A DNA stretch of 64,000 bases from an uncultured delta proteobacterium (GCA_963771175.1 CAVYSY010000021.1:128001-192000), one strand, 5' to 3'. Shown: positions 3,267-34,270, counted from the first letter of the stretch. Notes: generated by a model from the letters alone, not told the origin. A program made the numbers and translations.

Positions 3267-3269
3267 CGG

Positions 3270-18067: not shown

Positions 18068-18334
18068 TCAATTTTCTGATCCAGCGGAACGCGGGGCCCA
18101 CCCGGACACCGGAGTGAAGGGGCATGTGCCGCCACCTCCCCCCGTGCCGCAGAGGGCCCCACCCTCCCGGAAGTTGGAGCCGAATGACGGGCGGTGAACG
18201 GCTCGGGGGCGTGGCGCGTCCTCCGAGTGCCCTCGGGTGGACGTTCATCACGTCCGGCGGCGAAGAGCACTCACCAATGCGCCCCCCCGTGCCCATACCG
18301 AGCACGCAACCAGGGAGATGGGGGAGGTGCCGGC

Positions 18335-21300
18335 ATGGCCACATACCGACTCATCCGCAAGATCGCGGCAGGCGGAATGGCGGAGGTGTTCCTGGCCAAG
18401 GTGGTCGGGGCCGAGGGCTTCGAGAAGCCAGTCGCCGTCAAGCGCGTGCTGCCGTCGATGGTGCAGGACCGGGAGTTCGTGGAGCTCTTCCTGCGCGAGG
18501 CCAAGCTGACGGTGTGCCTGCAGCACGCCAACGTGGTGCAGGTGTTCGACCTGGGCGCCCTCAACGGCCAGTACTACATGGTGATGGAGTTCGTGGACGG
18601 GGAGAACCTCCGGGCCGTGCAGCGCGGCGCGGCGTCCCACCAGGTGGCGCTGGGGCTGCGCGAGGTGTGCTTCATCGTCCAGCAGGTGACGGAGGGCCTG
18701 GCGTACGCGCACGGGCGCTCGGACGCCGCGGGCCGGCCGCTCAACATCATCCACCGCGACGTCAACCCGTCCAACGTGATGGTGGCCAGCAGCGGCGAGG
18801 TGAAGCTGGCGGACTTCGGCATCGCCAAGGCGGCCAACGCGCAGAACGCCACCCAGGTGGGCGTGGTGAAGGGCAAGGCGGGCTACCTCGCGCCGGAGCA
18901 GGTGAAGGGCCTGGAGGTGGACCAGCGCGCGGACCTCTTCCTCATCGGCTTGATGCTGTACGAGCTGCTCGCCGGCAAGCAGCTCTTCGGCGGCTCGGAC
19001 TACTTCGCCACGCTGCGCAACATCGCCCAGTTCGACGTGAAGAGCCTCGCGCCGGTGCCGGGGGTGCCTCCGGCGCTCTGGGGCATCGTCACCCGGGCGC
19101 TGGCGGAGAACCCCACGGCGCGCTTCCAGCGGGCGCGCGACATCTCGGACGCGCTGCAGAACTTCCTCTTCGACCACCGGCTGCGCGTGGGCCCGCAGGA
19201 CGTGGCGGCCCTCTTCGCTCGCTGCTTCCCCGAGCGCCGCTCGCCGCTGGAGGGCGAGAGCGAGGTGCGGGGCGAGGAGATCCACCTCGGCTCGGACGCG
19301 GGGCTGCAGCGCCCGCAGACGCTCACCTCGGTGCGCTCGCGCCCGCCGTTCCCCGGGGGAACCCGTCCGGGCACGCCCTCGATGCGCGTGAGGGCCCTGA
19401 CGGACCCGGGCCGGATGCAGCCTCCGCCTCCGCCGCCGGCGACGTCCCTGACCATGCAGGTGCCTCCGCCTCCGGGCGGGCGCGCGGTGACGCAGGCGGG
19501 CGTGGGCTCCGCCGCCACCATGACGGTGCCTCCGCCTCCGAGCGCGCGCGTGGCGTCAGGGGGGGCCTCCTCCATCGCCATGCCGGTGCCCACGCGCGTG
19601 ATGCGTGCGCCGCGCCGCAAGCTGGGCGAGATGCTGGTGGCCGCCGGCAAGCTGTCGGAGACGCAGCTCAAGGGCGCGCTGGAGCGGCAGAAGCGCACCG
19701 GCGGGCGCATTGGCGAGCTGCTCGTCGCCGAGGGCCTCATCACCGAGGAGGACGTGGTCCGGATGCTGAGCGAGCAGGGCGGCATCCCCTTCGTCTCGGA
19801 CAAGGTGCTGCGCACGATGCCGGTGCCCAAGGCGCTGCTGCCGCTGCTGCCGCTGGAGAAGGCCGAACGGCTCGAGACGGTGCCGGTGGCCCAGCAGGGC
19901 AAGGAGCTGGTGTGCGCCATGCGCGAGCCGCGCGACCTGGCCCGGCTGGACGAGCTGAAGTTCGTCACCGGCAGCCCCGTGCGCGGCATCTATGCCACCG
20001 AGGGCGCCATCCGCCGCGCCATCGGCCGCTTCTACCGGGGGGATGACCCGGACCAGCTGGACGACTGGTCCAACTCCATGCCGCTGGCGGGCTCGGAGTC
20101 GGAGGCGGGCGTCACGCCCTACGCCGACAAGCACACCCGCACGCGCGAGCGACTGCTGGACGAGTCCGCCTTCGAGGAGGTGAAGGCCGTCCCCTCGCCG
20201 CCGCCCGCGCCTCCGCCGCCCGTTCCCGAGCCGGCCCCCGCGCCGCCTCTGACGCTCGCGCCCGCCTCGCTGGCGCGCACCATGCTGGTGGTGACCGACG
20301 ACGTGGAGCTGCGGGACGCGGCGGTGCGGCTGCTCACGCGCCAGGGCGTGGCGGCCTCGGGCAGCAGCGCGGCGGACGTGGAGAAGGCCGTGGCCCTCGG
20401 GGGCACCGAGGTGGCGCTGGTGGCCGCGGACACCATCCCGGATGCACCGGCGGTGGTGGCGCGGTTGATGACGGTGGCGCCCTCCCTGGAGGTGCGCGTG
20501 CTGCCCTCGCTGGCCGAGGCGCTCGGCGGCGAGGCCGGTCCGTTGAGCCGCGCGGCGCGGCTGCACGCGCGGGTGGTGGATGCGGCGCTCGCGGAGCTGG
20601 GCGGGGTGGGAGTGCAGGGCGCCTCGCTCGCCAAGTTGGCCCGGCGCGTGGCGCGCAGGTTGGGCGCGGGGCGCACGGAGGCCGAGCGGGCCTCGGCGGT
20701 GGCCTATGCCCTGGCGCTCGCGGCCTTCCAGGAATCGGAGGAGCGCTTCATCCGTCCCTCGTGCGAGGCGATGCGCGCCATCCTGGGCCGTGACGCGGGC
20801 GAGCTGGCCGACCTCATCGGCGCCTGCACGCGCGACGCTCCGCCGCCGTCCGAGAAGAGCAGCCGGGACACGCTGGCCCTGGCCGCGGCGGTGGCGCTGC
20901 TCGAGGTGGCGGGGACGGCCTCGCCCGCGGCGTCGACCGCGTCTCAGTCGCTCGTCAAGCTGCGCGCCGAGGGGAAGCTTCCCGCGGCGGCCCTGGAAGC
21001 CCTCTCCGCGGAGGTGATGGAGCTGGTGCTGGGCGATGGCATTTCGCACACGGTGGTGCTCGCCGAGCCCAACGCGGCGCGGGCCGCGGCCCTCCAGGCG
21101 CGCTTCCTCGCGGATGGGGTGCGGGTGGTGCTCGCCGACTCCGTGGCCCGGGTGCGCGTGCTGCTCTCGCAGGGCAGTCAGGCGCTGGTGGTGGCCTCGC
21201 GGCTGCCGGACGGAGATGGCGCCGGGCTCACGCGCTCGCTGCGCTCCGCGGCGGATACCGCCTCGCTGCCCATCTTCGTGCTGGCGCCTCCGGAGGACCC

Positions 21301-21463
21301 CGGGTTGGTGGAGGCCGGGCTGGATGCCGGCGCGGATGACGTCCTCACGTACCCGGTCAATCCAGACGTGCTGGTGGCCAAGCTGCGCCGTTCCCTGCAG
21401 CCGCGCCGGGTCACGGCGACCCCAGCAGCGGTCGTGATGACCCCAGCCTCCGTGAGCGCCTGA
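18335..21463 (+). CDS. Ser/Thr protein kinase with MshEN (GSPII_N) domain and pseudo-receiver domain(s)
   Basis: Hanks motifs IAAGGMAEV, VAVK, HRDVNPSN, DFG, YLAPE; KLGEMLVAAGKLSETQLKGALERQ plus RIGELLVAEGLITEEDVVRMLSEQ; C-terminal REC-like ...LPDGDG...AGADDVLTYP. GGAGG SD upstream of ATG 18335. Confidence 0.88.
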   Translation: MATYRLIRKIAAGGMAEVFLAKVVGAEGFEKPVAVKRVLPSMVQDREFVELFLREAKLTVCLQHANVVQVFDLGALNGQYYMVMEFVDGENLRAVQRGAASHQVALGLREVCFIVQQVTEGLAYAHGRSDAAGRPLNIIHRDVNPSNVMVASSGEVKLADFGIAKAANAQNATQVGVVKGKAGYLAPEQVKGLEVDQRADLFLIGLMLYELLAGKQLFGGSDYFATLRNIAQFDVKSLAPVPGVPPALWGIVTRALAENPTARFQRARDISDALQNFLFDHRLRVGPQDVAALFARCFPERRSPLEGESEVRGEEIHLGSDAGLQRPQTLTSVRSRPPFPGGTRPGTPSMRVRALTDPGRMQPPPPPPATSLTMQVPPPPGGRAVTQAGVGSAATMTVPPPPSARVASGGASSIAMPVPTRVMRAPRRKLGEMLVAAGKLSETQLKGALERQKRTGGRIGELLVAEGLITEEDVVRMLSEQGGIPFVSDKVLRTMPVPKALLPLLPLEKAERLETVPVAQQGKELVCAMREPRDLARLDELKFVTGSPVRGIYATEGAIRRAIGRFYRGDDPDQLDDWSNSMPLAGSESEAGVTPYADKHTRTRERLLDESAFEEVKAVPSPPPAPPPPVPEPAPAPPLTLAPASLARTMLVVTDDVELRDAAVRLLTRQGVAASGSSAADVEKAVALGGTEVALVAADTIPDAPAVVARLMTVAPSLEVRVLPSLAEALGGEAGPLSRAARLHARVVDAALAELGGVGVQGASLAKLARRVARRLGAGRTEAERASAVAYALALAAFQESEERFIRPSCEAMRAILGRDAGELADLIGACTRDAPPPSEKSSRDTLALAAAVALLEVAGTASPAASTASQSLVKLRAEGKLPAAALEALSAEVMELVLGDGISHTVVLAEPNAARAAALQARFLADGVRVVLADSVARVRVLLSQGSQALVVASRLPDGDGAGLTRSLRSAADTASLPIFVLAPPEDPGLVEAGLDAGADDVLTYPVNPDVLVAKLRRSLQPRRVTATPAAVVMTPASVSA

Positions 21464-21772
21464 GGTTCGATGTCTGGCGTCTGCTTTTGACCGCCGCGGT
21501 GCTCCGTGTAGAGAATTCCTCTCAGCGTGCGGGGAGAGTCAGGAAATGTCCTGGCTCTCCTCGAAGCGCTGACTTCACTCCCTCCTCGCTGCTTTCCCGC
21601 TATTCGCAACTCGATCGCTCGGCTCGTGCGAGCTGTCGCGGTGGTGCGACCACCGCTCATAGACTGCCACACGAGATAAGCTTTATGTATTGAGCAAATG
21701 AGTCGCCGCGGGGGAGGGCATGCCGTTCTGCATGGAACGGAGCGCCCCCCCTGCGTCTTCAGAGGAGGAGAT

Positions 21773-23546
21773 ATGCGGAACGGTCTCGCTGGAACGCTCA
21801 TCACCTCGGGACGTGAGCGGCTGACAGCGCTCGCGAGAGTGCTGGGCTTCGACGCGTCATCCACCCGGGCGATGCAGGAAGTCTTTCTCACCCTCGCATC
21901 GAGCTGGCGAGACCTGCCAGCCGGTGGTGCTCCTCCCTGGCCCTCGGACGTGTGTGACGACCACTCGCCCTTCGAGCTGTCCATCGCGCTCGACGCCGAG
22001 GGGCCGCAGCTTCGCGTGCTGGTGGAGCCGATGGACGCGTCGCCCTCGCTCCACTCCAACCGGGCCGCGAGCCTGCGCCTGCACGAGGAGCTCGAGCGCA
22101 CCCAGGGCATCAACGTCGAGCGGCTGCGCGCGCTGGAGTCGCTGCTGATGCCGGAGGATGCGCAGGGCCGGTTCGTCGCGTGGCACGCGGCGGCGTTCAG
22201 CCCGGGGCAGCCGGTGGACTTCAAGGTGTACTTCAACCTGCTGGCCCACGGCGCGGGTCGCGCGGCCCCGCTCACCCAGGAGGCGCTGGACCGGATTGGC
22301 TTCCACAAGGCCTGGTCCACGGTGGCCGAGGTGCTGGGACGCCGCGAGGAGGGACTGGACCAGGTCGTCTACTTCGCGCTCGACCTGTCCTCCCGCGGCG
22401 AGGCGCGGGCGAAGCTCTACTTGCGCCATCTCCAGCCGACCGCGGCTTTCCTCGAGGAGGTGTGCGCGGTGGCTCGCCACCACCAGCCGGGAGTCGTCTC
22501 CGAGTTCTGCCGCCAGATGGCTGGCGGCGACGAGGGCCCCTACATTGGCAAGGGACCGGTGACCTGCTTCAGCTTCACGGACCCGTCGGATGCTCGACCC
22601 AAGGCGGTGACGGCCTACTTCCCCGTGTCGCACTACGCGCGCGACGACCAGGAGATCCGCCAGCGGCTCACCGACTACCTGAAGGAGCAGGACCTCGCCA
22701 CGGCCCCCTACCTGGCGGCGCTCGAGGCCTGTGCTCGCCGTCCGCTGGAGGCGGGCGCGGGCATCCAAACCTATGCCGCGGTGCGGTGGCAGGGAAAGCC
22801 CCGCGTCACCGTGTACTTCTCGCCGGAGACCTACGGGATGATGGAGCAGCGGAGCGAGGCCCCCATGACGCAGGAGACCCGGCCGGCGACAGGGATTGTC
22901 GACCACTTCGAGGCGCACTCCCTCTCGGACCATCCGTTCTTCGCGCGGATGCGCCACGAGCCGGTGCGGCTGGAGGTGCTGGCGCGCGTGCTGGCCAACT
23001 TCCGCGTGGGCATCACCCGGGAGTTCCCGCGCCGGCTGGCGTGGCTCACCGCGCGCGTGGGGGATGAGCGCATCCGCAGCGTGCTGGCCAAGCAGCTCAA
23101 CGACGAGCTGGGCGATGGGGACTTCACTCGCGCCCACCGGGGGCTCTTCGAGCGCATGTTCGAGGTACTCGCGCCCTGGGCTCCGCCGGGGACGGAGGAG
23201 ATGCTCGCACCGGGCTTCGCGCTCGGAGAGGGAGCTGGAGCGCTGCTACGTGACGGCCGAGCCGTACGAGGGCGTGGGCGCGAGCCTCGTGGTCGAGGTC
23301 TACGGCAAGCAGGTGGACACGATCATCGCGGAGCAGTTCCGCCGCCAGACGGAGATTCCCCCCTCGGCCCTCGAGTGGCTGCACCTGCACGAGACCCTGG
23401 AGGTGGAGCACGCCGGGGAGGCGATGGACATCGCGCGGCTCATCCCCTCCGGCCCGGGCAGCGAGGCCGCATGGCGCGGGGCGAAGGCCGTCGCCATCGC
23501 GTCTCGTGCCTTCTTCGACGCCCTCTACCGCCAGTGCTACCCATGA
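21773..23546 (+). CDS. DMATS/tryptophan dimethylallyltransferase-family prenyltransferase read in frame with a heme-oxygenase-like diiron oxidase (TenA/PqqC/CADD fold); one extra base near 23231
   Basis: GAGGAGGAG SD before ATG 21773. Prenyltransferase motifs: WPSDVCDDHSPFELS, LRVLVE, FKVYFN, YFALDL, AKLYLRH, VTVYFSPE. HDO motifs: HPFF, QLNDELGDGDFTRAH, VVEVY, HETLEVEH. May be two genes coupled by ATGA at 22865. Confidence 0.75.
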
Positions 23547-24688
23547 GCGCTCTCGACTTCGGCGCGCTGCGCGCCCGCTTCCCCATCTTCTCCGAGCGCA
23601 CCTACTTCGCCACGCAGTGCCTCGGCCCCATGCCCGCCGAGGCGTATGCGGACCTGTTCGAGTACGCCCGGACGCTGGGGCTGCGCAATCGCTCCATTCC
23701 GCTGTGGCTCGAGCGCATGGCCGAGCTCATCGGCCTGCTGGAGCAGTTGCTCGGCGCGGAGTCGGGCTCGGTGGCGCTTCGGGAGAGTGCCACCGCGGCA
23801 CAGGCGGCCATCGCCTCCGCGGTGACGCCCCGGCCGGAGCGCAACCGCATCCTCTACAGCGCCATCGACTTCCACTCCTCGCGCTACCTGTGGTCCGCGC
23901 AGGCGCGGCGCGGCTTCTCCGTCGAGGAACTGCGGCCCGAGGACGGGGTGTCGCTGCGGCCCGAGGACGTGCTCCGGCACCTGGACGAGCGGGTGGCCAT
24001 CGTGGCGCTGTCGCTGGTGTCGCCGCGCACCGGGGCGCTCCTGGATGTCGTCCCGGTGGTGAAGGCGGCGCATGACGCGGGGGCCCTCGTGGTGCTCGAT
24101 GCGTATCAGGCCGTGGGCGTGGTGCCCGTGGACGTGCGGCGGCTCGGAGCGGACGTCGTGGTCGGTGGCACCCACAAGTGGCTGGGCGGAGGCGGCACCG
24201 GGCTCGCCTTCCTGTACGTGCGGCCCTCGCTGGCCGAGCGGCTCCAGCCGGCCTACCCGGGGTGGATTGGCCACCGGGAGATGGTCGGGTTCGCGGAGCG
24301 CTACGAGCCCGCACCGGGAGGCGCGCGCTTCCAGCAGGGGACGCCCGCCATGGAGCCCATCTACACGGCGCGCGCGGGCCTGCGCTTCGTGCTGGAGACG
24401 GGCGTGGAGCGGCTGCGGGCGCGCAACGTGGCGCTCACCACCCGGATGATGGCCCGGGCGCTCGACGCGGGGCTCTCGGTGAAGACGCCGCACGAGCCCG
24501 AGCGGCGCGGCGGGATGCTCTGCTTCGACATGGAGGACGGCTCCTCGGTCGTCGAGCGGATGGCGGCGCTCGGCATCGACATCGACACCCGGCCGGGCGC
24601 GGGCATCCGCGTCTCGCCCCATCCCTGCAACACGGAGCAGGAGTGCGACCGCGTCATCGACGAGCTCGCGCGCCTGACACGGCGATGA
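23543..24688 (+). CDS. Class V PLP-dependent enzyme, kynureninase-like
   Basis: YFATQCLGPMP, DAYQAVG, GGTHKWLGGG (PLP lysine), PGWIGH, RFQQGTP, IRVSPH; ATGA overlap with the upstream stop. Confidence 0.82.
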   Translation: MSALDFGALRARFPIFSERTYFATQCLGPMPAEAYADLFEYARTLGLRNRSIPLWLERMAELIGLLEQLLGAESGSVALRESATAAQAAIASAVTPRPERNRILYSAIDFHSSRYLWSAQARRGFSVEELRPEDGVSLRPEDVLRHLDERVAIVALSLVSPRTGALLDVVPVVKAAHDAGALVVLDAYQAVGVVPVDVRRLGADVVVGGTHKWLGGGGTGLAFLYVRPSLAERLQPAYPGWIGHREMVGFAERYEPAPGGARFQQGTPAMEPIYTARAGLRFVLETGVERLRARNVALTTRMMARALDAGLSVKTPHEPERRGGMLCFDMEDGSSVVERMAALGIDIDTRPGAGIRVSPHPCNTEQECDRVIDELARLTRR

Positions 24689-25767
24689 GTGGCGCGACGC
24701 TCGATTTCCGAGGCGAGCCGGTGCCGTGTACGCCGGCCACCCTCCAACTGCTCGCCTGCGCGCCGCTGTTGGGCTCGGTGCTCGGCGCGGCGGTGGACTC
24801 GAGGCTCTTCGACCATCTGGCGGAGGGCGCGCTCGACGCCGAGGGACTGGCCACCCGCGCGGGCATCTCCGTGGACGGGGCGCGGCGTCTCCTCACGGCG
24901 CTCGTGGCGCTCGGGCTCGTCGAGCAGGAGCCGGGTCCGCGCTTCCGCAACGGTCCCCTGGCGGCTGCGGCGCTCACTTCCGGAGGGGAGGACTCACTCG
25001 TGCCGTTCCTCCTCCACCAGCGCCGTCACGTCGACTCGCTCTTCGCGCACCTGGACGAGGGCGTGCGCACGGGTCGGCCCCAGTTCGAGCACTGGCCATT
25101 CGTCGACCCCGCGCGCCGCGCCGGGGACCCGTACTCGGAGCTGGTCCAACACCCGGAGGAGTACGCGCTCCTCATGCGGGCCATGGACAGCGCGAGCCGT
25201 GGGGTAGGGCGTGTCATCGCCGAGCAGGTGGACTTCTCCGAGGTGCACCGGCTCGTGGACCTCGGGGGCGGCGGAGGACAGGTGGCCATCGAGCTGGCGC
25301 AGGCGGTGCCGCACCTGTCCATCGAGCTCGTCGACACGCCGCCCGCGCGGGCCCATGCCGCCGGGCGCATCGAGCGCGCCGGGCTCTCCGAGCGCATCCG
25401 CTGCACGACGGCGGACCTTCGCGAGGACCTGAGCGGCTCCCTCGCGCTGGCCGATGCGGTGCTCCTGTCGGGGGTGATTGGTGACTTCGTGGCGGAGGAG
25501 CGCGCCCGCGTCCTCGCGCGAGCGGTGCGCCTGCTGCGCCCGGGGGGGCTGCTGCTCGTGAGCGAGACACTGTTCCACCCCGAGCGGCGGGGCCCCCTGC
25601 TGCCCGCGCTCCTGTCGCTGTTCATGCTGCTCAGCACCGGGGGCGACAACTTCACGCCGGAGGAGATGGAAGGGATGCTCCGTACGGCGGGCCTGTCGGA
25701 CATCCGCCTCTTCTTCAACGGCGCGCGGGGCCTGCGGGACCTCGCGGTGGCTCGCCGTCCGGGCTAA
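24685..25767 (+). CDS. SAM-dependent methyltransferase (O-methyltransferase family with N-terminal dimerisation domain)
   Basis: Winged-helix dimerisation N-terminus; LVDLGGGGG motif I; LRPGGLLLVSE; ATGA overlap at 24685. Confidence 0.88.
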   Translation: MSGATLDFRGEPVPCTPATLQLLACAPLLGSVLGAAVDSRLFDHLAEGALDAEGLATRAGISVDGARRLLTALVALGLVEQEPGPRFRNGPLAAAALTSGGEDSLVPFLLHQRRHVDSLFAHLDEGVRTGRPQFEHWPFVDPARRAGDPYSELVQHPEEYALLMRAMDSASRGVGRVIAEQVDFSEVHRLVDLGGGGGQVAIELAQAVPHLSIELVDTPPARAHAAGRIERAGLSERIRCTTADLREDLSGSLALADAVLLSGVIGDFVAEERARVLARAVRLLRPGGLLLVSETLFHPERRGPLLPALLSLFMLLSTGGDNFTPEEMEGMLRTAGLSDIRLFFNGARGLRDLAVARRPG

Positions 25768-25911: not shown

Positions 25912-25938
25912 AAACCTGTCCGACAGTCGGACAGGTTT
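25912..25938. repeat. 27-bp palindrome (REP-like element)
   Basis: AAACCTGTCCGAC-A-GTCGGACAGGTTT, perfect 13-bp arms. Confidence 0.75.
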
Positions 25939-26149
25939 CTGAAAAGTGTGGCCGGAAGGCCGGTGGGTGCCGGTCGTCGCCCCTGAAGGGACCTACTTCC
26001 GATGGCTTAGCCGGGTGGGGGGCCTGCCCGCTTGTATGAACTCCACTCGCTGAGTAACCCCGCTGCCGCAACTTGCGAAGCCGAGCATCACCTGGGGGAG
26101 GCTCTCGGGCGGCAACACGCCCCTGAGCCCCCCTGCGCCGGTCCGGGTG

Positions 26150-26587
26150 CTACTTCCCGACGCGGGCGTAGCTGCCCTTGAGGGTCACGCCCACCACGAA
26201 GGAGCCGGCGTGGCACTCGAACTCCGTGGTGCTCTTGAACTCGCTCTTCTTGTAGTAGCTGACGATGCCGACCACCGCGTTGGCGCCCTTCTTCTTCGCG
26301 GTGTCCTGCAGCGAGATGAGCACCGACAGTGCCGCCCACTTGCAGCCGAACTCGTCGGACTTGCCCAGGCTGTTGGTCTTCTTGTTGCTCACCCCCTCAC
26401 CGAGGGTCTCGACCACGGCCGGCGTCTTCGCTCCCGCGAGGTAGAACGCCACGGACTTGTCCAGCTTGCCCTTCGCCTCCGGCATCGCGAGGACGTCGGC
26501 CAGCTTGATTTTGTAGACCGTGTCGCGCGCCAGGGCCGGCGTCGCGAACGTCACGGCCAGAATGGACATGGCCATCCACTTCTTCAT
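26150..26587 (-). CDS. Small exported protein typical of aryl polyene clusters (often mislabelled as an excinuclease subunit)
   Basis: Signal peptide; SNKKTNSLGKSDEFGC...GANAVV...FECHAG...VTLKG pattern. Confidence 0.75.
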   Translation of the reverse strand: MKKWMAMSILAVTFATPALARDTVYKIKLADVLAMPEAKGKLDKSVAFYLAGAKTPAVVETLGEGVSNKKTNSLGKSDEFGCKWAALSVLISLQDTAKKKGANAVVGIVSYYKKSEFKSTTEFECHAGSFVVGVTLKGSYARVGK

Positions 26588-26600
26588 CGTTGTCCCTCCC

Positions 26601-27839
26601 CTAGTCCCAACGGCGGAACACCAACGAGGTGTTGATTCCGCCGAAGGCGAAGTTGTTGCTCATGACGAGGTCCGTCTGGATGTTGCGACCCTCGCCGGTG
26701 ATGTAGTCCAGCGGCGCGCAGCGCGGGTCCACCGAGCCCGGCTCGAGGTGGAGCGTCGGCGCGAACCAGCCCGAGCGCATCATCTCGATGGTCATCCAGG
26801 CCTCGAGCGCACCGCAGGCGCCCAGGGTGTGCCCCAGGTAGCTCTTGAGCGAGCAGAAGGGGACCCGCTTGCCGAACACGCTGTGGGTGCCGGCCGTCTC
26901 GGCGATGTCGCCGTGCTCGGTGGCGGTGCCGTGGGCGTTCACGTAGCCGATGTCCGCGGGGGACACCCCCGCGTCCTCCAGGGCCAGCCGCATGGCGTCG
27001 GCCATGGTGGGGGCGTTGGGCTGGGTGACGTGTCGGCCGTCGTTGTTGGTGCCGTAGCCGACGACCTCCGCGTAGATGGTCGCGCCGCGCGCACGGGCGT
27101 GCTCCAGCTCCTCGAGCACGAGGGTGCACGCCCCCTCACCGAGCACCAGCCCCGTCCGAGCCGCGTGGAAGGGCCGCGGGGTGAGGTGCGGCGTGTCGTT
27201 GTTCTGGGTGCTGGTGGCGAAGAGGGTGTCGAACACCGCCGCTTCCGTCGCGTCGAGCTCCTCGGCGCCGCCGGCGAGCATCGCCACCTGGCGCCCCATC
27301 TTGATGGCCTCGTAGGCGTAGCCGATTCCCTGGCTGCCCGACGTGCACGCGCTGGAGGTGGTGATGATGCGCCCCGTGATTCCGAAGAAGACGCCGATGT
27401 TCACCGGGGCCGTGTGCGCCATCATCCGGATGTAGGTGGTGGCGGTGATTCCCTCGGTGGTTTTCTCCGTAATCATCCGGCCGAAGTCGGCCATGTTGGC
27501 GGGGGTGCCGGAGGACGAGCCGTAGGCGATGCCCATCTTCCCGCTCTTGAGCAGCGGGTCTCCCAGCAGCCCTGCCGACTGCAGGGCCAGCTCGCTGGCG
27601 CGCGTGGCCAGCAGCGCGACGCGGCCCATGCTCCGCGTGGCCTTGCGGCTGTAGGTCTGGGGGGGGAGCTCGAAGGGGGCAGCGGGCGCGCCCACCCGCG
27701 TGTTCAGGCCCTCGTACACCTTCCACGCGTCCATGGTCTGGACGGCGTTGCGAAGCGACCTCAGCCTCGCCTCCACCGTCTTCCAGTCATGGCCGAGCGG
27801 GCTGATGGCCCCGATGCCGGTGACGACAACCCTCTTCAT
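26601..27839 (-). CDS. Beta-ketoacyl-ACP synthase (FabF-like, APE cluster)
   Basis: MKRVVVTGIG, SSACTSG, NAHGTAT, KSYLGHTLGACG, NNFAFGG. Confidence 0.93.
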   Translation of the reverse strand: MKRVVVTGIGAISPLGHDWKTVEARLRSLRNAVQTMDAWKVYEGLNTRVGAPAAPFELPPQTYSRKATRSMGRVALLATRASELALQSAGLLGDPLLKSGKMGIAYGSSSGTPANMADFGRMITEKTTEGITATTYIRMMAHTAPVNIGVFFGITGRIITTSSACTSGSQGIGYAYEAIKMGRQVAMLAGGAEELDATEAAVFDTLFATSTQNNDTPHLTPRPFHAARTGLVLGEGACTLVLEELEHARARGATIYAEVVGYGTNNDGRHVTQPNAPTMADAMRLALEDAGVSPADIGYVNAHGTATEHGDIAETAGTHSVFGKRVPFCSLKSYLGHTLGACGALEAWMTIEMMRSGWFAPTLHLEPGSVDPRCAPLDYITGEGRNIQTDLVMSNNFAFGGINTSLVFRRWD

Positions 27840-28567
27840 CCGAACAATCCCCCGTTCACGGAGATGACCTGCCGAGTGATGTACGCCGCGTCCTTGCCCA
27901 TGAGGAAGCTGATCGTCGCGGCCACCTCCTCGGGCGTCCCCATGCGCCGGGCGGGAATGAGCTTGAGCGCCTCTTCCACCACGTGCGCCTCCACCATCTC
28001 CGTCTCGATGAGACCGGGGGCGACGCAGTTGACGGTGATTTCCCGGCGGGCCAGCTCGATGGCGAGCGCCTTGGTCGCGCCGATGATGCCGGCCTTCGCC
28101 GCGCTGTAGTTCACCTGCCCCCGGTTGCCCATGAGCCCGGACACGGAGGAGAGGGTGACGATGCGTCCGGGCTTGCGACGCCGGACCATCGGCATCGTGA
28201 GCGGGTTGAGCACGTTGTAGAAGGCGTCGAGGTTGGTGTGGATGACCACGTCCCAGTCCTCGGGGGGCATGGCCGGAAAGGCGTTGTCCCGGGCGATGCC
28301 CGCGTTGCACACCACCCCGTAGTAGCAGCCGTGCTCCTCGACGTCGGCAAGGAGGGCCTGCGCGGTGGCGGCCCGGTCCGCCACGTCGAACTGCAGCACG
28401 CGGCTGCCCCTGCCGAGCTCGCGCATCTGCCCGGCCACCGCCTCGGCCTCCTCGCGCCGGCTGCGGCAGTGGACGACCACGTCGTAGCCATCACGCGCCA
28501 GGCGCAGGGCGACCGCGCGACCGATGCCCCGGCTGGAGCCCGTCACCAGTACCGTGTTGTCACTCAT
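27836..28567 (-). CDS. 3-oxoacyl-ACP reductase (FabG-like)
   Basis: TGSSRGIG, NAG, YSAAK SDR motifs. Confidence 0.93.
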   Translation of the reverse strand: MSDNTVLVTGSSRGIGRAVALRLARDGYDVVVHCRSRREEAEAVAGQMRELGRGSRVLQFDVADRAATAQALLADVEEHGCYYGVVCNAGIARDNAFPAMPPEDWDVVIHTNLDAFYNVLNPLTMPMVRRRKPGRIVTLSSVSGLMGNRGQVNYSAAKAGIIGATKALAIELARREITVNCVAPGLIETEMVEAHVVEEALKLIPARRMGTPEEVAATISFLMGKDAAYITRQVISVNGGLFG

Positions 28568-29007
28568 TCCCCAGCCCCGTCGGGTGGTTCGAACACCGTC
28601 AGTGCGGCGCTCGCCACCGTCTCACCCTCGATGGAGATGGTGCAAGCGAATTGCCCCATGCCGGACTCCGCCCAGAACTCCTGACGGACCTGGATGAGAA
28701 GCCGCTCGCCCGCCCTGAAGACGGGACGGCTGCACGAATAGCGGCGCGTCCCCAGCAGGAAGCCCATCTTCGGCGCTTCTCCGCGCAGCCGGGCATTCCA
28801 TCCGGCCCACGCCCCCACCGTCTGGGCCATGAACTCGATTCCGACCCAGCCCCCCACCCCCCCGTCCCGGAAGAAGAGGCAGTCCTCGCGGATGGTCACC
28901 TCGGCCACCATCCCGGAGTCGTCGGCCTCCAGGGCGCGGTCGATGAGGCGCATGGGGCCGCTGTGCGCCACCAGGTCGGCGAGCGCGTAGTCGACTGGAG
29001 TTCCCAT
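28564..29007 (-). CDS. Hotdog-fold 3-hydroxyacyl-ACP dehydratase (ApeP-like)
   Basis: LVAHSGPMRLID, IEFMAQT, GFLLGTR. Confidence 0.85.
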   Translation of the reverse strand: MGTPVDYALADLVAHSGPMRLIDRALEADDSGMVAEVTIREDCLFFRDGGVGGWVGIEFMAQTVGAWAGWNARLRGEAPKMGFLLGTRRYSCSRPVFRAGERLLIQVRQEFWAESGMGQFACTISIEGETVASAALTVFEPPDGAGE

Positions 29008-30200
29008 CAGGCGCGCCCCAGGAGCAGCGCGGCGTTGCTGCCGCCGAACCCGAAGGAGTTGCTCAGCGCATAGCGGGGCGGACGGCCCAGGCTGTAGTCG
29101 GCAGGCACCAGGGCCAGCGCGGGAAGCGCCGGGTCGGGCTCTCCATCCCACCAGTGGGGGGGCAGCAGCCCGGCCGGGTTGTCGGTGAGGGTCAGCCAGC
29201 AGAAGGCGGCCTCCAGTGCGCCCGCGGCCCCCAGGGTGTGCCCGGTGAGCGGCTTGGTGGAGCTGGACGGAACGTCTCCGCCGAGCAGCGCGTGCACCGC
29301 CCGGCTCTCCATCGCGTCGTTGAGGGGCGTGGCCGTCCCGTGGAGGTTGACGTAGTCGACGTCGGCCGGGGCCACGCCTCCGCGCTCCAGCGCCGCCTTC
29401 ATCGCGGCCAGCGCGCCCCGGCCGCCGGGCTCCGGCGCGGAGATGTGGTGCGCGTCGGAGGACTCACCCCAGCCGGCGAGCCGCACCGGCCCCGGCTCCC
29501 GCGTCATCAGGAAGAGGGCCGCGCCCTCGCCGATGTTGATGCCGCGGCGGTGGACGCTCATGGGGTTGCAGCGCGCCTCGCTCACCGACTCGAGCGCGGA
29601 GAACCCGGCGACGGTGAAGCGGCACAGCGAGTCGGCCCCTCCTGCGATGACCGCGTCGCAGACGCCCGCGCGCAGCAGTCGGGCGGCGCTGGCCAGCGCC
29701 TTGGCGCTGGAGGAGCAGGCGGTGGAGATGACGAGGGTCGGCCCCGCCAGGCCGAGCAGCCCACTGAGCGCCATGGCCGGTGAGCCGAGCTCCTGCTGCC
29801 GCAGGTGGAAGGAGGGGGAAAGCGCGCCGTGGGCGGCATGCTCCACCATGGCGGTCTCGCTCTCCCCGATGCCGGAGGTGCTCGTTCCCAGGACGACCCC
29901 CACCCGCTCGGGACCGAAGCGGGCGATGGCCGCATCCACCTCGGAGCGGATGTCCGCCAGCGCGGTGAGCAGCAGCGCGTTGTTGCGGCTGCGCAAGGGG
30001 CGCGCGAGCACCTCCGTGTCGGCCAGCGGCGAGGTGACCTGGCCCACGTGCAGCGTGCGAGCGGCGAAATCGTCGCTCGGGGCCACACCGCTCGGCGCGC
30101 CGGCGAACAGGGCGGCGCGGACCTGGTGCCTGCCCGCTCCCGGGGCGCACACGAGGCCCAGCGCATTGAGGAAGACCGGCCGGTTCATAGGGTCATTCAT
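29007..30200 (-). CDS. Beta-ketoacyl-ACP synthase (APE ketosynthase)
   Basis: STACSSS, NLHGTAT, KPLTGHTLGAAG, NSFGFGG. Confidence 0.92.
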   Translation of the reverse strand: MNDPMNRPVFLNALGLVCAPGAGRHQVRAALFAGAPSGVAPSDDFAARTLHVGQVTSPLADTEVLARPLRSRNNALLLTALADIRSEVDAAIARFGPERVGVVLGTSTSGIGESETAMVEHAAHGALSPSFHLRQQELGSPAMALSGLLGLAGPTLVISTACSSSAKALASAARLLRAGVCDAVIAGGADSLCRFTVAGFSALESVSEARCNPMSVHRRGINIGEGAALFLMTREPGPVRLAGWGESSDAHHISAPEPGGRGALAAMKAALERGGVAPADVDYVNLHGTATPLNDAMESRAVHALLGGDVPSSSTKPLTGHTLGAAGALEAAFCWLTLTDNPAGLLPPHWWDGEPDPALPALALVPADYSLGRPPRYALSNSFGFGGSNAALLLGRA

Positions 30201-30762
30201 CGGTGTTGCGGCGCGACTGGATGGTCAGCCGGTAGTGCTCCGCCTCATTGCGCAGCTCGGCCCCACCTTCCCAGCGGGGATGGCCATCGTAGCGCACCAC
30301 CACCTTCTTCTGTCCTGCGTAGAGGAGCGCTCGGCTGCCCGGCGAGTCCTCCAGGGTCCAGCCGGGGGGCAGGGCGGCCCGGACACCCTCGGCGGGCCAG
30401 TAGACGAGCTGGATGTCCCGGAGCACCCGGGCCGCCTGGAGCTGGGGGGGGACGAAGGGCGCCCGCTGCTCCTCGAGGCGCTGGCCGTCCCAGAGGAGGG
30501 TGAAGACGCGCTGGCCGAGCGTGAACCCGGCCAGCCGCAGCTGCTCGGCATCGACTTCCAGCAGGGCCTCGAGCGAGCGGGCCCCACCGGCATCCCGGGC
30601 GTGCTCGAACGTCAGCTGCTGCGTGAGGCTCACCGGCTGCCCGAGCCCGGCCGGGGGCAGCCGGAGCTCGGGCAGGGCCTCCGCCTGCGCCGCGGGTCGC
30701 GTCGGACGTGCGGCGCAGGCGGTCAGGGCCAGCAGGGCAGCGGCGGCAATCAGGCGGCGCAC
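30193..30762 (-). CDS. DUF3261-like lipoprotein
   Basis: GTG start with lipobox LTAC; VLRDIQLVYWP motif; position in the cluster matches APE gene order. Confidence 0.75.
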   Translation of the reverse strand: MRRLIAAAALLALTACAARPTRPAAQAEALPELRLPPAGLGQPVSLTQQLTFEHARDAGGARSLEALLEVDAEQLRLAGFTLGQRVFTLLWDGQRLEEQRAPFVPPQLQAARVLRDIQLVYWPAEGVRAALPPGWTLEDSPGSRALLYAGQKKVVVRYDGHPRWEGGAELRNEAEHYRLTIQSRRNTDE

Positions 30763-31976
30763 AGCTCTCCGAGCACCTTGAGCCGGCGGCTCTCCGCCAC
30801 GAAGGGGTTGGCCTTGTCCCAGGCGTAGCCCGCGAGGATGGCGGAAATCATCCGGCGGACCTCCGGCGACTGGTTGGGGTGGAAGAGAATCCGCTGGAAC
30901 TCGCCCGTGTACCAGGACTCGACGAAGGCGCGGAACGTGTTGACGCCCTCCTTGAGGGGCTGCGCGTAGTCGCGCTCCCAGTCCACCGCCTCGCCGGCAC
31001 GGCTGCGCTCGAGCGCGGCCACCGCCAGACTGGCCGACTTGAAGGCGATGGTCACGCCCGAGGAGAAGACCGGGTCGAGGAACTCGCCGGCGTTTCCGAG
31101 CAGCGCGAAGCCCCGGCCCCACAGCGACTTCACGTTGGCGGAATAGCCGGTGAGCTTGCGCGCCGGGGTGTCCCACACCGCGTCCTTCAGGAGGGTGGCG
31201 AGTGCGGGCGCCTCGTTGACGATGGTCCGCAGCCGCTCGAGGTCCGTGCCCTGGTACTGCTCGAGGAACTCCCGCCTGGCCACCACGCCCAGCGAGCAAC
31301 GGCCGTTGGAGAAGGGGATGGTCCAGTACCACACGTCCACGTGCTCGGGGTGCACCGAGATGAGAATCTTGTTCCGGTCGAAGATGCCGGGCGCCACCCG
31401 GTCCTCGATGTGGGTGAAGATGGCGCCGCGCACGGGGAAGTTGGACGGCGTCTCCAGTGCGAGCAGCCGCGGCAGGACGCGGCCGAACCCGCTGGCGTCG
31501 AGCAGGAAGTTGGCCTCCACGCCGTAGGTCTCCCCCTCGGGGGAGCGCACCGTCACCCGGGGCTTGTCCCCCTCGAGGTCCACGGCGGTGACCTCGTGCC
31601 GGAAGCGGAGGGTGGCGCCCATCCGCTCGGCGGCCTTGGCGAGGACGTGGTCGAACGTGGCGCGCTCCACCTGGTAGGTGGTGCCCCAGCCCGGCGAGAA
31701 CTTCTCCCGGAAGTCGAACTGCGTGTACGTGCTGCCGCGGGCGAAGGCCGCGCCGTTCTTGAACTGGAAGCCCGCCTCCACCACGTCACGGAGCATGCCC
31801 GCCGCCTCGATGTACTCCATGCTCTGCGGCAGCAGGCTCTCGCCGATGGAGAAGCGCGGGAACTGCTCCTTCTCCAGCATGAGCACCTCGCGCCCGTGCT
31901 TGCGCAGCAGGCCTGCCGCCACCGAGCCAGCGGGGCCCGCGCCGATGACGAGAACATCGGTCCTTTCAGTCTTCAT
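30750..31976 (-). CDS. FAD-dependent oxidoreductase / flavin-dependent halogenase-like protein
   Basis: GAGPAG, FPRFSIGESLLP, WYWTIP (WxWxIP), FLDPVFSSGV. Confidence 0.85.
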   Translation of the reverse strand: MKTERTDVLVIGAGPAGSVAAGLLRKHGREVLMLEKEQFPRFSIGESLLPQSMEYIEAAGMLRDVVEAGFQFKNGAAFARGSTYTQFDFREKFSPGWGTTYQVERATFDHVLAKAAERMGATLRFRHEVTAVDLEGDKPRVTVRSPEGETYGVEANFLLDASGFGRVLPRLLALETPSNFPVRGAIFTHIEDRVAPGIFDRNKILISVHPEHVDVWYWTIPFSNGRCSLGVVARREFLEQYQGTDLERLRTIVNEAPALATLLKDAVWDTPARKLTGYSANVKSLWGRGFALLGNAGEFLDPVFSSGVTIAFKSASLAVAALERSRAGEAVDWERDYAQPLKEGVNTFRAFVESWYTGEFQRILFHPNQSPEVRRMISAILAGYAWDKANPFVAESRRLKVLGELCAA

Positions 31977-34270
31977 GTTCTTTCCTGGTGAGGAAGGGGT
32001 CTGAAACAGGGGGTCAACATCCAGATGGTCACCTCACCCACCAGCATGGTGAGGCCGAAGGAGCGCAGGGCCGGGGTGGCCGAGAGGGCCAGCAGCCCGA
32101 AGGAGAGGAAGGTGCTCACGCCGGCCAGCGCGACGGCGAGCCACGTCGAGTCGTCGCCGGGGTGCTCGAGGAGGAAGATGCCGTAGTCCACGCCCATGCC
32201 CAGCAGGACCACCAGCCCGAGCACGGTGAAGAGCTGCAGCGGCTCGCCCATCCACCCCAGCACCCCGAGCGTGACGAGGCTCCCCAGTGCCGAGGGGGCC
32301 CAGGCCCGCAGGGCCTGGCGCCGGAAGCGAAGCGCCAGCAGCACCAGCACCGCTGCGTAGCCGGCCACGAGCAGGCCCGTCATGACGCGGCGGTAGCGCC
32401 CGAGCAGCCGCGAGACCTCCTCGGTCTTGTCCACCCAGCGCACGCCCCGCAGGCCGTCCGCGGCCCGGGCCAGGCGCGGCAGCACCGACGCGTCGTTCAG
32501 GCCGTTGAGCATCAGCACGCTGAACTGCCGGTCGCCCACCGGGCCCAGCCACTGCTGGCGGACGGCCCGGCCCACCGGGCTCGAGAGCAGCTGCCCGGGG
32601 GTGAGCGTCCCCGCGGCGAACGCGGCACGCTGAAGCTCCTCGCCCGTCGCGGTGGCCACCGCGGCCAGCACCGTCTGCTCCGCGCGGGCGCTGAGCGCCT
32701 GGTCCGCGTGCTGCTGCGCGGCCGGGGGCAGCCAGTCGGAGACCGCGCGGTAGCCGGCCAGTGCGCCCTCGGCGACCAGCGCGTCCAGCCGCTGCTTGAG
32801 CGCGGACTCGCGCACCAGGGTCTCCTCGGCATCCGCCCCCTCGACGAGGAAGAACTGGGCGGGGCTGGGCAGTGCCAGCAGCCGTCCCAGCTCCCGCTGG
32901 TCCGCGATCAGGGCCTGGGGCGCGTTCTGCAGCTGGCGCAGGTCGTCGCGGCTCTGGAGCCTCCACAGCCCTCCGGCGGTCAGCACCAGCAGCCCGCCGA
33001 GCACCAGCCCGGAGCGGAGCCCCAGGCCGAAGCGGGGCCAGCGGCCCAGCGCGGTGGAGACCCGCTCGGCGAAGCGGGTGACGGGCAGCTCGCCGCGGTC
33101 GGCCAGGGGGAACCAGCAGACCACGGTGAGGAAGGCGCCGAGCAGGCCCGCCGAGGCGAACACCGCCATCTGGCGCAGCCCCGGGAAGGGGGCCAGCCCC
33201 AGCGCGAGATACGCCACCACGCTGGTGAGCAGGGCCAGCGCCATGCCCGGCAGCAGGCGGCGCATGAGCGAGCGGCGCTCCGAGGCAGGTCTGCCCGTCC
33301 GGGCGGCGAAGTAGTGGAACCCGTAGTCCTCGGCCACGCCCACCAGGGTTGCGCCGAACACGAGCGTGAGGAGGTGGACCTGCTCGAAGAGGAGCGCGGT
33401 GACGCTCAGCGCGATGGCGGAGCCGACGAGCAGCGACACGCCGATGAGCACGATGGGCCGCACCGAGCGGAAGGTCAGCCACACCAGCAGCAGCACCGCG
33501 AGCAGCGAGCCCAGGCCGATGGTGGACATCTCCCGGCTCGCCTGGGCCGCGGCGGCCTCGGCATACAGCGGCACGCCGGCAGCCACCAGGCGCCCTCCCG
33601 GAACGGCGGAGAGGACCGCGGCGCGTGCGCGCGCCACGGCGGCGCTGACCGCCCCCTGCTCGCCGAGCGCGAAGGAGGAGACGGTGCCGCGGTAGGACAG
33701 CAGCACCCACTCGCGGCCCTCGCCCGAGAGCCACAGCCGGCCCTCGCGGGGGCGGGCCGCACTCTCCGCGGCGCGCGCCGCCCACCAGTCGGGCCAGAGG
33801 CCGAGCGGGTCGGCGTTCCACTCCGTCAGCCGCGGTCCGGCCGGCTGGTAGAGCTTCATCAGCGCCGTGGCCGCCAGCTCCTTCTCGCTCGCGCGCGCCA
33901 GCCACTCCCGCTGGCCGGGCGTCAGCAGCCGGTCGCGGTAGGGCAGGTAGAACGCCACGGCGTCCTCCAGGGCGGAGGCATCCAGGGCGGAGGGCTCCAG
34001 CGGCGCGCCGGAGTCCGAGAGCGCGCGGGCCGCCACCTCCGCGGCGCGCTGGGCCGCAGGCCAATCGGGGCCGCCCACCAGCAGCACCAGCTCGCGTCCG
34101 GCCTCGTCGGCCAGCCTCCGGGTGGCGGCGCCCACCTCCGGGGCCTGCTCGTCCTCCGGCAGGAGCGCGAGCACGTCGGTGTCCAGGCGCGTCGAGCGCC
34201 AGAAGGAGACCTGGTGCACGCCCACGGCGAGCACGAGCACGGTCCAGAGGATGGCCAGTCTACTTCCCAA
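31973..34270 (-). CDS. MMPL/RND-family exporter (APE cluster)
   Basis: DTDVLALLP, about 12 TM segments, GVAEDY and GMGVDY motifs. Confidence 0.88.
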   Translation of the reverse strand: MGSRLAILWTVLVLAVGVHQVSFWRSTRLDTDVLALLPEDEQAPEVGAATRRLADEAGRELVLLVGGPDWPAAQRAAEVAARALSDSGAPLEPSALDASALEDAVAFYLPYRDRLLTPGQREWLARASEKELAATALMKLYQPAGPRLTEWNADPLGLWPDWWAARAAESAARPREGRLWLSGEGREWVLLSYRGTVSSFALGEQGAVSAAVARARAAVLSAVPGGRLVAAGVPLYAEAAAAQASREMSTIGLGSLLAVLLLVWLTFRSVRPIVLIGVSLLVGSAIALSVTALLFEQVHLLTLVFGATLVGVAEDYGFHYFAARTGRPASERRSLMRRLLPGMALALLTSVVAYLALGLAPFPGLRQMAVFASAGLLGAFLTVVCWFPLADRGELPVTRFAERVSTALGRWPRFGLGLRSGLVLGGLLVLTAGGLWRLQSRDDLRQLQNAPQALIADQRELGRLLALPSPAQFFLVEGADAEETLVRESALKQRLDALVAEGALAGYRAVSDWLPPAAQQHADQALSARAEQTVLAAVATATGEELQRAAFAAGTLTPGQLLSSPVGRAVRQQWLGPVGDRQFSVLMLNGLNDASVLPRLARAADGLRGVRWVDKTEEVSRLLGRYRRVMTGLLVAGYAAVLVLLALRFRRQALRAWAPSALGSLVTLGVLGWMGEPLQLFTVLGLVVLLGMGVDYGIFLLEHPGDDSTWLAVALAGVSTFLSFGLLALSATPALRSFGLTMLVGEVTIWMLTPCFRPLPHQERT

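Follow-up and report, generated by a model that had tools for sequence, protein, structure and literature searches.

A DMATS-HDO fusion gene and its kynureninase-like partner form a conserved, apparently uncharacterised cassette of Myxococcota and Cyanobacteria

Introduction

One question raised by positions 21773-25767 of a 64,000-nucleotide stretch of DNA from an uncultured delta proteobacterium (GCA_963771175.1 CAVYSY010000021.1:128001-192000; hereafter the window, all coordinates being counted from its first letter) is what would be made by a short operon that combines a prenyltransferase of the dimethylallyltryptophan synthase (DMATS) type, a haem-oxygenase-like diiron oxidase (HDO), a kynureninase-like pyridoxal 5'-phosphate (PLP) enzyme and a methyltransferase. 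A preliminary description, made from the sequence alone, had listed these as four genes and had not recognised a characterised pathway in them. Most characterised HDOs act on free amino acids. Here the operon is described as three genes of an Archangium-like myxobacterium, coding for a DMATS-HDO fusion protein, a kynureninase-like PLP enzyme and a family-2 methyltransferase, and the cassette to which it belongs as real, conserved and apparently uncharacterised.

Results

Gene organisation of the operon

The DMATS and HDO parts are encoded by a single gene (21773-23546) for a fusion protein of about 590 amino acids. Since no stop lies between the two parts and two-domain homologues exist, the operon comprises three genes and not four; the DMATS and HDO domains share one chain. 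The four enzyme families had been named correctly in the preliminary description, and all of them were recovered in the Pfam scan. The start of the fusion gene at 21773 coincides with the N-termini of its homologues in tblastn comparisons, and the strong Shine-Dalgarno sequence reported in front of it is present (Table 1). Both reported ATGA overlaps were also found: at 23543-23546 the stop of the fusion gene overlaps the ATG of the PLP gene, and at 24685-24688 the stop of the PLP gene overlaps the ATG of the methyltransferase gene. In agreement with the earlier reading, neither non-ribosomal peptide synthetase nor polyketide synthase domains were detected inside 21773-25767, and no tryptophan 2,3-dioxygenase (TDO) was found among the open reading frames (ORFs) of the window that were scanned. 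Third-position GC analysis of this DNA (G+C of the window, about 71%) indicated unbroken coding on the plus strand from about 21.8 to 25.8 kb, with changes of frame near 23.14-23.2, 23.45 and 24.7 kb.

Table 1. Features of the operon and of its upstream neighbour in the window
Feature	Position	Strand	Basis and remarks
Shine-Dalgarno-like run GAGGAGGAG	21762..21770	+	Sequence reading; 2 nt upstream of the ATG at 21773
DMATS-type (ABBA) aromatic prenyltransferase domain of the fusion gene, residues ~1-355	21773..22837	+	Pfam Trp_DMAT
Linker and N-terminal HDO half	22838..23230	+	tblastn, Pfam; in frame with DMATS, no stop between
Frameshift site (+1), GGG run with one surplus G relative to relatives	23230..23232	+	tblastn, DNA alignment
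C-terminal HDO half, +1 frame	23232..23546	+	tblastn, Pfam; stop TGA at 23544-23546
Kynureninase-like class-V PLP enzyme, 381 aa	23543..24688	+	Pfam, PDB search
Family-2 (COMT/ASMT-like) S-adenosylmethionine-dependent methyltransferase, 360 aa	24685..25767	+	Pfam, PDB search; TAA at 25765-25767
Ser/Thr protein kinase, MshEN and receiver protein, 1089 aa, upstream neighbour	18194..21463	+	Pfam Pkinase E 2e-37, MshEN E 2e-16, Response_reg E 5e-7

A frameshift in the window copy of the fusion gene

When intact homologues were used as tblastn queries, one frame was followed up to 23230 and the next one from 23232, with 89-90% identity on either side. The N-terminal stretch is continuous from 21779 (homologue P0001, 90% identity) or 21785 (P0004, 81%) to about 23230, and the C-terminal stretch matches residues 488-591 of P0001 at 89% identity. 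DNA alignment revealed a single surplus base with respect to all four close relatives compared (L001, L002, L003 and L006), the window reading GGAGAGGGAGCTG where L001 reads GGCGA-GGAGCTG. The HDO reading frame is interrupted by this base, which parts the first two metal ligands, in one frame, from the other four, in the next. An indel had been implied by the preliminary description, which spoke of an "indel-corrected operon" and gave no location; the indel exists and is placed here at 23230-23232.

The longest ORF of the region (21698-24688, 996 aa) arises because the frameshift brings the first 486 codons of the fusion gene into the frame of the PLP gene. It was rejected as a genuine triple fusion, as the roughly 104 codons that separate the N-terminal HDO half from the PLP part are HDO sequence read out of frame, and it mimics P0271, an apparently true triple fusion. 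Programmed frameshifting at 23230-23232 was dismissed because the frame is unbroken at this site in the four close relatives.

Either the cassette copy in the window is inactive in this strain or the surplus G is a sequencing error, and a lone homopolymer lesion without further decay fits a sequencing error or a very recent mutation. That the frameshift is genuine and has recently turned the cassette of this strain into a pseudogene operon without product is a serious possibility that we are inclined to doubt. The surplus base is absent from all four relatives and separates two metal ligands from four, but it is the sole lesion, the flanks on both sides keep the identity to intact homologues given above, third-position GC is still high in the shifted frame, and the PLP and methyltransferase genes are full length and 96% (over 381 aa) and 94% identical, respectively, to their L001 orthologues. 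Furthermore, the insertion sits in a G run, where sequencing errors typically occur. This explanation concerns the state of the window copy only and is compatible with every mechanism considered in the Discussion.

Conservation of the cassette and natural fusions

One scan of representative genomes gave 51 loci. Both the DMATS and the HDO part are encoded in 46 of them, and in 45 of the 46 one frame runs through both parts with no stop; at L038 (10269-11664, an "uncultured proteobacterium" assembly) the DMATS match extends over 205 aa only and is out of frame with the HDO part, and this may be another broken copy. Twenty-seven of the 46 fusion loci belong to Myxococcota (Archangiaceae, Myxococcaceae, Polyangiaceae, Nannocystaceae, Sandaracinaceae and Kofleriaceae) and 19 to Cyanobacteria (Chamaesiphon, Nostoc) or a Sericytochromatia assembly. 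The Pfam domains PF11991 and PF14518 occur together in one protein of about 555-655 aa in 80 among the 120 homologues listed, the best two-domain homologues being 90%, 88% and 81% identical to the window protein (the 81% one from Archangium lipolyticum), and the 94 members of an ESM Atlas cluster share this domain composition. In a quick maximum-likelihood tree of 41 fusion proteins, rooted by midpoint only, the window protein stands beside that of L001 (92% identity), inside a clade of Archangiaceae and Myxococcaceae, and all 16 cyanobacterial and Sericytochromatia sequences fall into a single clade nested among Polyangia.

In 37 of the 44 assessable loci (26 of 27 in Myxococcota, 11 of 17 in the cyanobacterial group) the next gene downstream of the fusion gene, on the same strand, is the PLP gene. 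The preliminary description had named lack of conserved synteny as a result that would speak against its proposal; the cassette proved to be strongly conserved. The methyltransferase gene is adjacent in 11 of the 46 loci, and in L043 it is located upstream on the opposite strand. A flavoenzyme resembling cytokinin oxidases, with FAD_binding_4 and cytokinin-binding domains, is encoded in nine loci, right after the PLP gene in six of them (L008, L009, L010, L022, L037 and L051), upstream in L027 and L034, and about 9 kb downstream in one; it matches plant cytokinin oxidases at E 4e-58 and other enzymes of the VAO family at 1e-20. Flavoenzyme and methyltransferase occur together only in L027 and L043. 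The core cassette is made up of the fusion gene and the PLP gene, with the methyltransferase, which the preliminary description had placed in its minimal route, and the flavoenzyme as accessory genes.

P0271 (997 aa), recovered with a profile of the HDO domain, joins a DMATS domain, an intact HDO domain and a kynureninase-like PLP enzyme, with 38% and 56% identity to the window proteins. Six longer relatives of the PLP enzyme were also found. Among these, P0387 and P0388 are DMATS-PLP fusions, and P0389 (Sorangium sp. So ce327) is a fusion of the PLP enzyme with the methyltransferase. In P0390 a PLP domain of 32% identity is fused to a TDO, which fits an oxygenase feeding such a PLP lyase. The natural fusions argue that prenyltransferase, HDO, PLP enzyme and methyltransferase are functionally tied together, mostly in the order DMATS, HDO, PLP, methyltransferase.

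No description of the DMATS-HDO architecture was found in the openly accessible literature searched, a provisional result, most subscription journals lying outside it. Neither "prenyl" nor "fusion" occurs in the searchable text of an HDO review of March 2026 and of recent HDO papers. In line with the preliminary description, no characterised pathway of this composition was found in the literature searched.

The DMATS domain

The DMATS domain passed the Pfam family model Trp_DMAT (PF11991; 64.1 bits against a cutoff of 25), and its 124.1 bits with NCBIfam TIGR03429, under the cutoff of 163.85, indicate a divergent member. The closest PDB relatives, found with P0001 (90% identical to the window protein) as query, are bacterial Trp prenyltransferases, namely 6zry/6zrx (E 2e-44) followed by CymD, 6-DMATS and PriB. 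Among 24 fusion proteins, E69, R82, R213 and Y217 are invariant and K152, Y154, K215, Y335 and Y349 nearly so; these conserved residues may correspond to the catalytic Glu of FgaPT2, which contacts the indole N-H, and to its diphosphate-holding Arg/Lys/Tyr ladder on the barrel strands.

The HDO domain

With the Pfam model Haem_oxygenas_2 (PF14518; cutoff 28.9) the N-terminal piece of the HDO domain alone scored 21.5 bits and the C-terminal piece 29.0 bits. Six positions (E89, H99, E152, H183, E187 and H190) are invariant in an alignment of 40 sequences (A2), and all six are encoded in the window, in the motifs NDELG (Glu) and RAH (His) of the N-terminal half and VVEVYG (Glu) and LHETLEVEH (His/Glu/His) of the C-terminal half. 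By motif, we take these three His and three carboxylates to be the metal ligands. The AlphaFold2 model of the L001 HDO domain (92% identical) reached a predicted local distance difference test score of 94.5 and a predicted template modelling (TM) score of 0.90. In Foldseek it matched CADD with TM scores of 0.70-0.79, and HrmI, PqqC, BesC, RohS, UndA, FlcD and PolF were also matched at E <= 2e-3, TM scores overall being about 0.65-0.79; identity to any solved HDO was at most 18% among the Foldseek matches listed. As modelled, the domain has the seven-helix HDO fold, and it is a plausible catalyst.

A search of the PDB with the single sequence gave no match of the HDO domain at E <= 1, and the profile of 40 HDO sequences found BesC as best match (7twa, E 1e-7), together with HrmI and CADD. 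AetD was missing from the profile matches up to E 10 and from the Foldseek matches listed; similarity to AetD, one of the HDOs named in the preliminary description, was detected by none of these three approaches. An HDO-only match in Aetokthonos hydrillicola (L044) was considered as AetD and dropped, its ORF having no PDB sequence match and lying beside genes for a response regulator, a histidine kinase and an acyltransferase.

At E <= 1e-3 the HDO profile recovered 905 representatives, and at E <= 1e-30 there were 113. Some of these are C-terminal domains within chains of about 550-650 aa, others proteins of 220-290 aa that stand alone; of the 150 matches listed, 47 have at least 500 aa. The same HDO clade includes P0308 (444 aa), which carries an NAD(P)-binding Rossmann domain after the HDO domain, and P0241 (456 aa), with two tandem HDO-domain matches. 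Stand-alone HDO homologues adjoin genes for biopterin-dependent aromatic amino-acid hydroxylases in two of five loci (L046, 8199-10681; L047, 10022-12345), the former also with a methyltransferase. These neighbours hint that the clade acts on (hydroxylated) aromatic amino acids even where no prenyltransferase is present.

The PLP enzyme

In Pfam the PLP enzyme matched Aminotran_5 (E 2e-37), KYNU_C (E 1e-11) and Cys_Met_Meta_PP, and no other family; it does not belong to Beta_elim_lyase/tryptophanase. Its best PDB match is the kynureninase of Pseudomonas fluorescens (1qz9, E 1e-35), followed by human kynureninase (1e-23) and SufS (3e-18), and its family, with 666 matches, is larger than that of the fusion protein. 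K212, D186, R356 and F110 do not vary among 36 orthologues; in 1qz9 the counterparts of K212, D186 and F110 are K227, D201 and the Phe of its NFPTD motif. We take these residues to be the PLP lysine (K212), the Asp that contacts the pyridine N (D186), an Arg that probably corresponds to the one binding the alpha-carboxylate in kynureninase (R356) and the Phe stacking on PLP (F110). With the NCBIfam SufS model the enzyme scored 103.6 bits, under the cutoff of 475.1, and the only candidate for a desulfurase Cys, C362, is absent in 3 of the 36 orthologues and in P0271.

The methyltransferase

The methyltransferase matched Methyltransf_2 (PF00891; 94.3 bits, E 9e-27, cutoff 22.3) and Dimerisation (PF08100; 43.2 bits, E 4e-11, cutoff 25.6). 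DsyB (7e-30), RedM, ASMT (7e-26) and SibL (7e-24) are among its PDB matches, all of them between E 1e-30 and 1e-23, with SibL coming only fifth. The enzyme thus appears as a generic family-2 methyltransferase and not specifically a SibL-like one, and the connection that had been drawn to the 3-hydroxykynurenine C-methyltransferases of the actinomycin type is not borne out.

About 150 bp past the methyltransferase stop, at 25912-25938, there is a perfect 11-bp inverted repeat (AAACCTGTCCG, a 5-nt loop and CGGACAGGTTT), ahead of which an A run occurs on the plus strand. The repeat may act as a terminator on one strand or the other, and it is not in the list given by the consensus scan.

Signalling genes and other neighbours

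The upstream gene for a kinase-MshEN-receiver protein, possibly a regulator or sensor, is also present upstream of the cassette in L001-L003 (95-96% identity). A kinase or receiver domain is encoded within 1 kb of the cassette in 26 of 45 loci, and such domains were found in 30 of 78 adjacent 1-kb windows versus 39 of 226 windows at a distance of 5-10 kb, which gives an odds ratio of 3.0 (Fisher p 2.5e-4, uncorrected for kinship and thus overstating independence, as the loci are related). In six Chamaesiphon loci without the PLP gene, a giant kinase gene directly follows the fusion gene; the Chamaesiphon protein encoded after the cassette is a kinase-AAA-GAF-histidine-kinase of 1800-1950 aa. 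L029 also has a CBS-histidine-kinase-receiver gene upstream. In Nostoc sp. XA013 the cassette is preceded by genes for a similar giant kinase and a LuxR-type response regulator. The preceding genes code for a FIST protein together with a hybrid histidine kinase in Polyangia, and for a histidine kinase together with a response regulator in Myxococcaceae bacterium GXIMD 01537. Stand-alone HDO homologues adjoin two-component genes as well. This arrangement suggests a signalling role for the cassette.

Elsewhere in the window, 315-7512 is rich in signalling genes, with a protein of three receiver domains and two histidine-kinase genes on the minus strand, and a further Ser/Thr kinase is encoded at 50393-52156. 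A separate cluster on the minus strand (27836-44461) resembles a lipid or pigment pathway of the aryl-polyene type. It comprises genes for a short-chain dehydrogenase, a ketosynthase, an FAD-dependent halogenase-like protein, an MMPL transporter, a LolA-like protein, a thioesterase, an aromatic amino-acid ammonia-lyase, an AMP-binding protein with an ApeI-like dehydratase domain and a Ketoacyl-synt_2 protein, and it is not conserved alongside the cassette in distant loci. No ORF passing the third-position GC filter was found at 26660-27836, a stretch of lower G+C (0.679 for 26001-28000) bounded by a 145-aa ORF without family match and the dehydrogenase gene.

Discussion

A proposed pathway

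What the operon would make is tentatively read, with a confidence that stays just below even, as the product of prenylation, HDO oxidation, PLP-dependent side-chain cleavage and methylation, in that order; the order is proposed because it follows the gene order, the domain order and the triple fusion. The DMATS domain would prenylate L-tryptophan with dimethylallyl diphosphate. The fused HDO domain would then use O2 at a diiron site in order to oxygenate prenyl-tryptophan at or beside indole C2/C3, giving a gamma-carbonyl or gamma-hydroxy amino acid (C-gamma being indole C3), for example prenyl-kynurenine or an intermediate of the (di)oxindolylalanine type. The PLP enzyme would break the C-beta/C-gamma bond in the fashion of a kynureninase, freeing alanine and releasing a prenylated aromatic compound of the anthranilate, 2-aminobenzaldehyde or isatin type, which in the lineage of the window the methyltransferase may methylate. 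There is a precedent in actinomycetes, where DMATS enzymes paired with a PLP side-chain lyase give prenylindoles, according to the available text of a preprint (bioRxiv 10.1101/2024.02.14.580309).

Several observations weigh against this pathway. We infer L-tryptophan as prenyl acceptor from Trp prenyltransferases of only 35-40% identity. The HDO domain, frameshifted in the window copy, is at most 18% identical to the nearest solved HDOs, and the step proposed for it lacks precedent among the reactions covered in the accessible part of a review (PMC13108848), which include neither indole 2,3-cleavage nor C3 oxygenation. A strictly linear order is made less certain by P0387 (712 aa) and P0388 (775 aa), DMATS-PLP fusions without an HDO domain, and by L006 and six Chamaesiphon loci, where the PLP gene is not adjacent despite several kb of downstream sequence. 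As to the PLP enzyme, the label kynureninase-like given in the preliminary description agrees with 1qz9 as best solved relative and fails at two points. The score with the curated kynureninase model TIGR01814 was 88 bits, under the cutoff of 246.4, and the position before the PLP lysine is occupied by His in 30 of the 36 orthologues, Asn in 3, Leu in 2 and Val in 1, never by the Tyr that stands there in the P. fluorescens kynureninase (Tyr226). The enzyme also has a DxYQ motif, which resembles that of cysteine desulfurases.

Relation to known systems

The actinomycete systems of DMATS and tryptophan indole-lyase (PriB/PriA, the 7-prenylisatin cluster and the fused Mara1) likewise pair a DMATS Trp prenyltransferase, sometimes by fusion, with a PLP enzyme that removes the side chain, and they lead to a small prenylated indole that is later oxidised or decorated, with neither non-ribosomal peptide synthetase nor polyketide synthase, as far as the preprint is accessible (bioRxiv 10.1101/2024.02.14.580309). 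The DMATS domain of the window is related in sequence to PriB, CymD and 6-DMATS. The window PLP enzyme is, however, a class V kynureninase-like protein and not a tryptophanase, the HDO is fused to the DMATS domain, and the hosts of the cassette are Myxococcota and Cyanobacteria instead of Streptomyces. With the TDO and kynureninase pair of the kynurenine pathway, joined by the SibL-type methyltransferase in the formation of sibiromycin and actinomycin precursors, the operon shares, as proposed here, the succession of an oxygenase, a PLP hydrolase cleaving C-beta/C-gamma and a family-2 methyltransferase; the nearest solved relative of its PLP enzyme is a kynureninase, and a distant relative is fused to TDO. 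Unlike those TDO, kynureninase and SibL-type systems, it has a prenyltransferase and no TDO among the scanned ORFs of the window, its PLP enzyme fails the kynureninase model, and its methyltransferase is not specifically SibL-like.

AetD, the nitrile synthase of aetokthonotoxin, and the skatole synthase SktA, which both act on halogenated tryptophan, have in common with the cassette the fold of the HDO superfamily, a likely tryptophan-derived substrate and a small cluster in which tryptophan is modified first, by a halogenase there and by a prenyltransferase here. A PLP lyase is also present in the aet cluster, according to the part of the source available (PMC11869266). The differences are the lack of detectable sequence similarity, the fusion of the window HDO to the modifying enzyme and a PLP partner of another family. 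BesC, the best match of the HDO profile, and BesB belong to the pathway of a terminal-alkyne amino acid. In that pathway an HDO and then a PLP enzyme act in succession on one free amino acid. Here the dissimilarities are an identity of about 18%, BesB being a PLP enzyme of Cys/Met metabolism, chlorolysine as substrate and the lack of prenylation in that pathway.

Alternative pathways

In a tryptophanase-like order of steps, the PLP enzyme would act on prenyl-tryptophan itself and take off its side chain, in the manner of PriA, TnaA or the lyase domain of Mara1, and the resulting free prenylindole would be oxidised by the HDO (to an isatin, indoxyl, carbaldehyde or carboxylate type) and finished by the methyltransferase. 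The HDO-less fusions P0387 and P0388 agree with this order, and so do the 156 adjacent and 28 fused regions of actinomycete DMATS and tryptophan indole-lyase and the later oxidation of their products, e.g. to 7-prenylisatin and 5-isoprenylindole-3-carboxylate, which appear in the accessible text of the preprint (bioRxiv 10.1101/2024.02.14.580309). We nevertheless consider it unlikely, as the PLP enzyme is not a Beta_elim_lyase and is closest to kynureninases, which require an oxidised gamma-carbon, the commonest architecture joins DMATS to the HDO and not to the lyase, and both the triple fusion and the gene order put the HDO ahead of the PLP enzyme. A rather improbable scheme is that the HDO alone destroys the alanyl side chain of prenyl-tryptophan, as in AetD and SktA, leaving a prenyl-indole nitrile, aldehyde or methylindole; the PLP enzyme would then have another role, such as disposal of a two-carbon co-product or supply of substrate. 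The only HDOs known to act on tryptophan work in this way, so far as the sources were available (PMC11869266, PMC11611611, PMC10654658), the seven loci with no adjacent PLP gene may mean that the fusion protein yields the finished product, and class-V PLP enzymes include alanine-glyoxylate aminotransferase (1vjo, E 3e-8). Against it are the absence of similarity to solved HDOs in the single-sequence search, the failure of the profile and of the Foldseek matches listed to include AetD, the different nature of the Aetokthonos HDO homologue (L044), without PDB sequence match, and the tight linkage of the PLP gene (37 of 44 loci) together with the triple fusion, which speak for a direct involvement of the PLP enzyme. 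It is the DMATS-PLP fusions and the loci without PLP gene that keep these two schemes alive.

A sulfur route, in which the HDO would couple cysteine oxidatively to the prenylated ring, the PLP enzyme would cleave C-S bonds as lyases of the EgtE/C-DES type do, and the methyltransferase would S-methylate the thiol, seems very improbable. No C-S bond formation is found among the HDO reactions reviewed in the available text of PMC13108848, the kynureninase score (126.8 bits) is far above that of any desulfurase or lyase (69 bits), a KYNU_C domain is present, and the conserved Cys is not retained throughout. In its favour, the PLP enzyme has His-Lys and DxYQ motifs, which are typical of cysteine desulfurases and lyases, it obtained 103.6 bits with SufS and E 6e-14 with EgtE-type lyases, and the top PDB match of the methyltransferase, DsyB, is an S-methyltransferase. 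Oxidation by the HDO ahead of PLP-dependent cleavage is the pathway that we prefer.

Indiacens, which are prenylated indole-3-carbaldehydes, come from Sandaracinus. One of the loci (L039) is a Sandaracinaceae metagenome assembly; a link with indiacens is an idea only, and the literature search found no biosynthetic information on them.

A possible signal, and significance of the family

The proximity of sensor genes raises a more speculative proposal, which we hold to be possible and rather doubtful: the DMATS-HDO enzyme, with or without the PLP lyase, might synthesise signalling molecules of a new class, prenylated and derived from tryptophan, which the adjacent sensor proteins would detect. 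Such sensors would be the giant kinases of Chamaesiphon and Nostoc, the FIST proteins and hybrid histidine kinases of Polyangia, and the kinase-MshEN-receiver protein of the window. By analogy with the oxidation of plant cytokinins, the flavoenzyme of nine loci could switch such a signal off by oxidising a prenyl-amine bond.

Clusters that convert tryptophan into prenylated indoles by means of DMATS enzymes are already known from actinomycetes; the cassette replaces the tryptophanase with a kynureninase-like lyase and fuses an HDO to the prenyltransferase. The window copy is of lower value because its key gene is frameshifted as sequenced, and intact orthologues exist, e.g. in Archangium lipolyticum, Polyangium jinanense and Nostoc species. 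The fusion family is modest in size and spans two phyla. Both Myxococcota and Cyanobacteria are known for multicellular or social behaviour. HDOs have repeatedly been shown to catalyse unprecedented reactions, such as nitrile, skatole, alkene, azetidine and nitro-group formation. The HDO clade described here is remote from all solved HDOs and has a defined substrate, probably tryptophan-derived, that its own fusion partner supplies. It is thus a tractable place to look for new oxidative chemistry as well as for a new family of prenylated aromatic metabolites.

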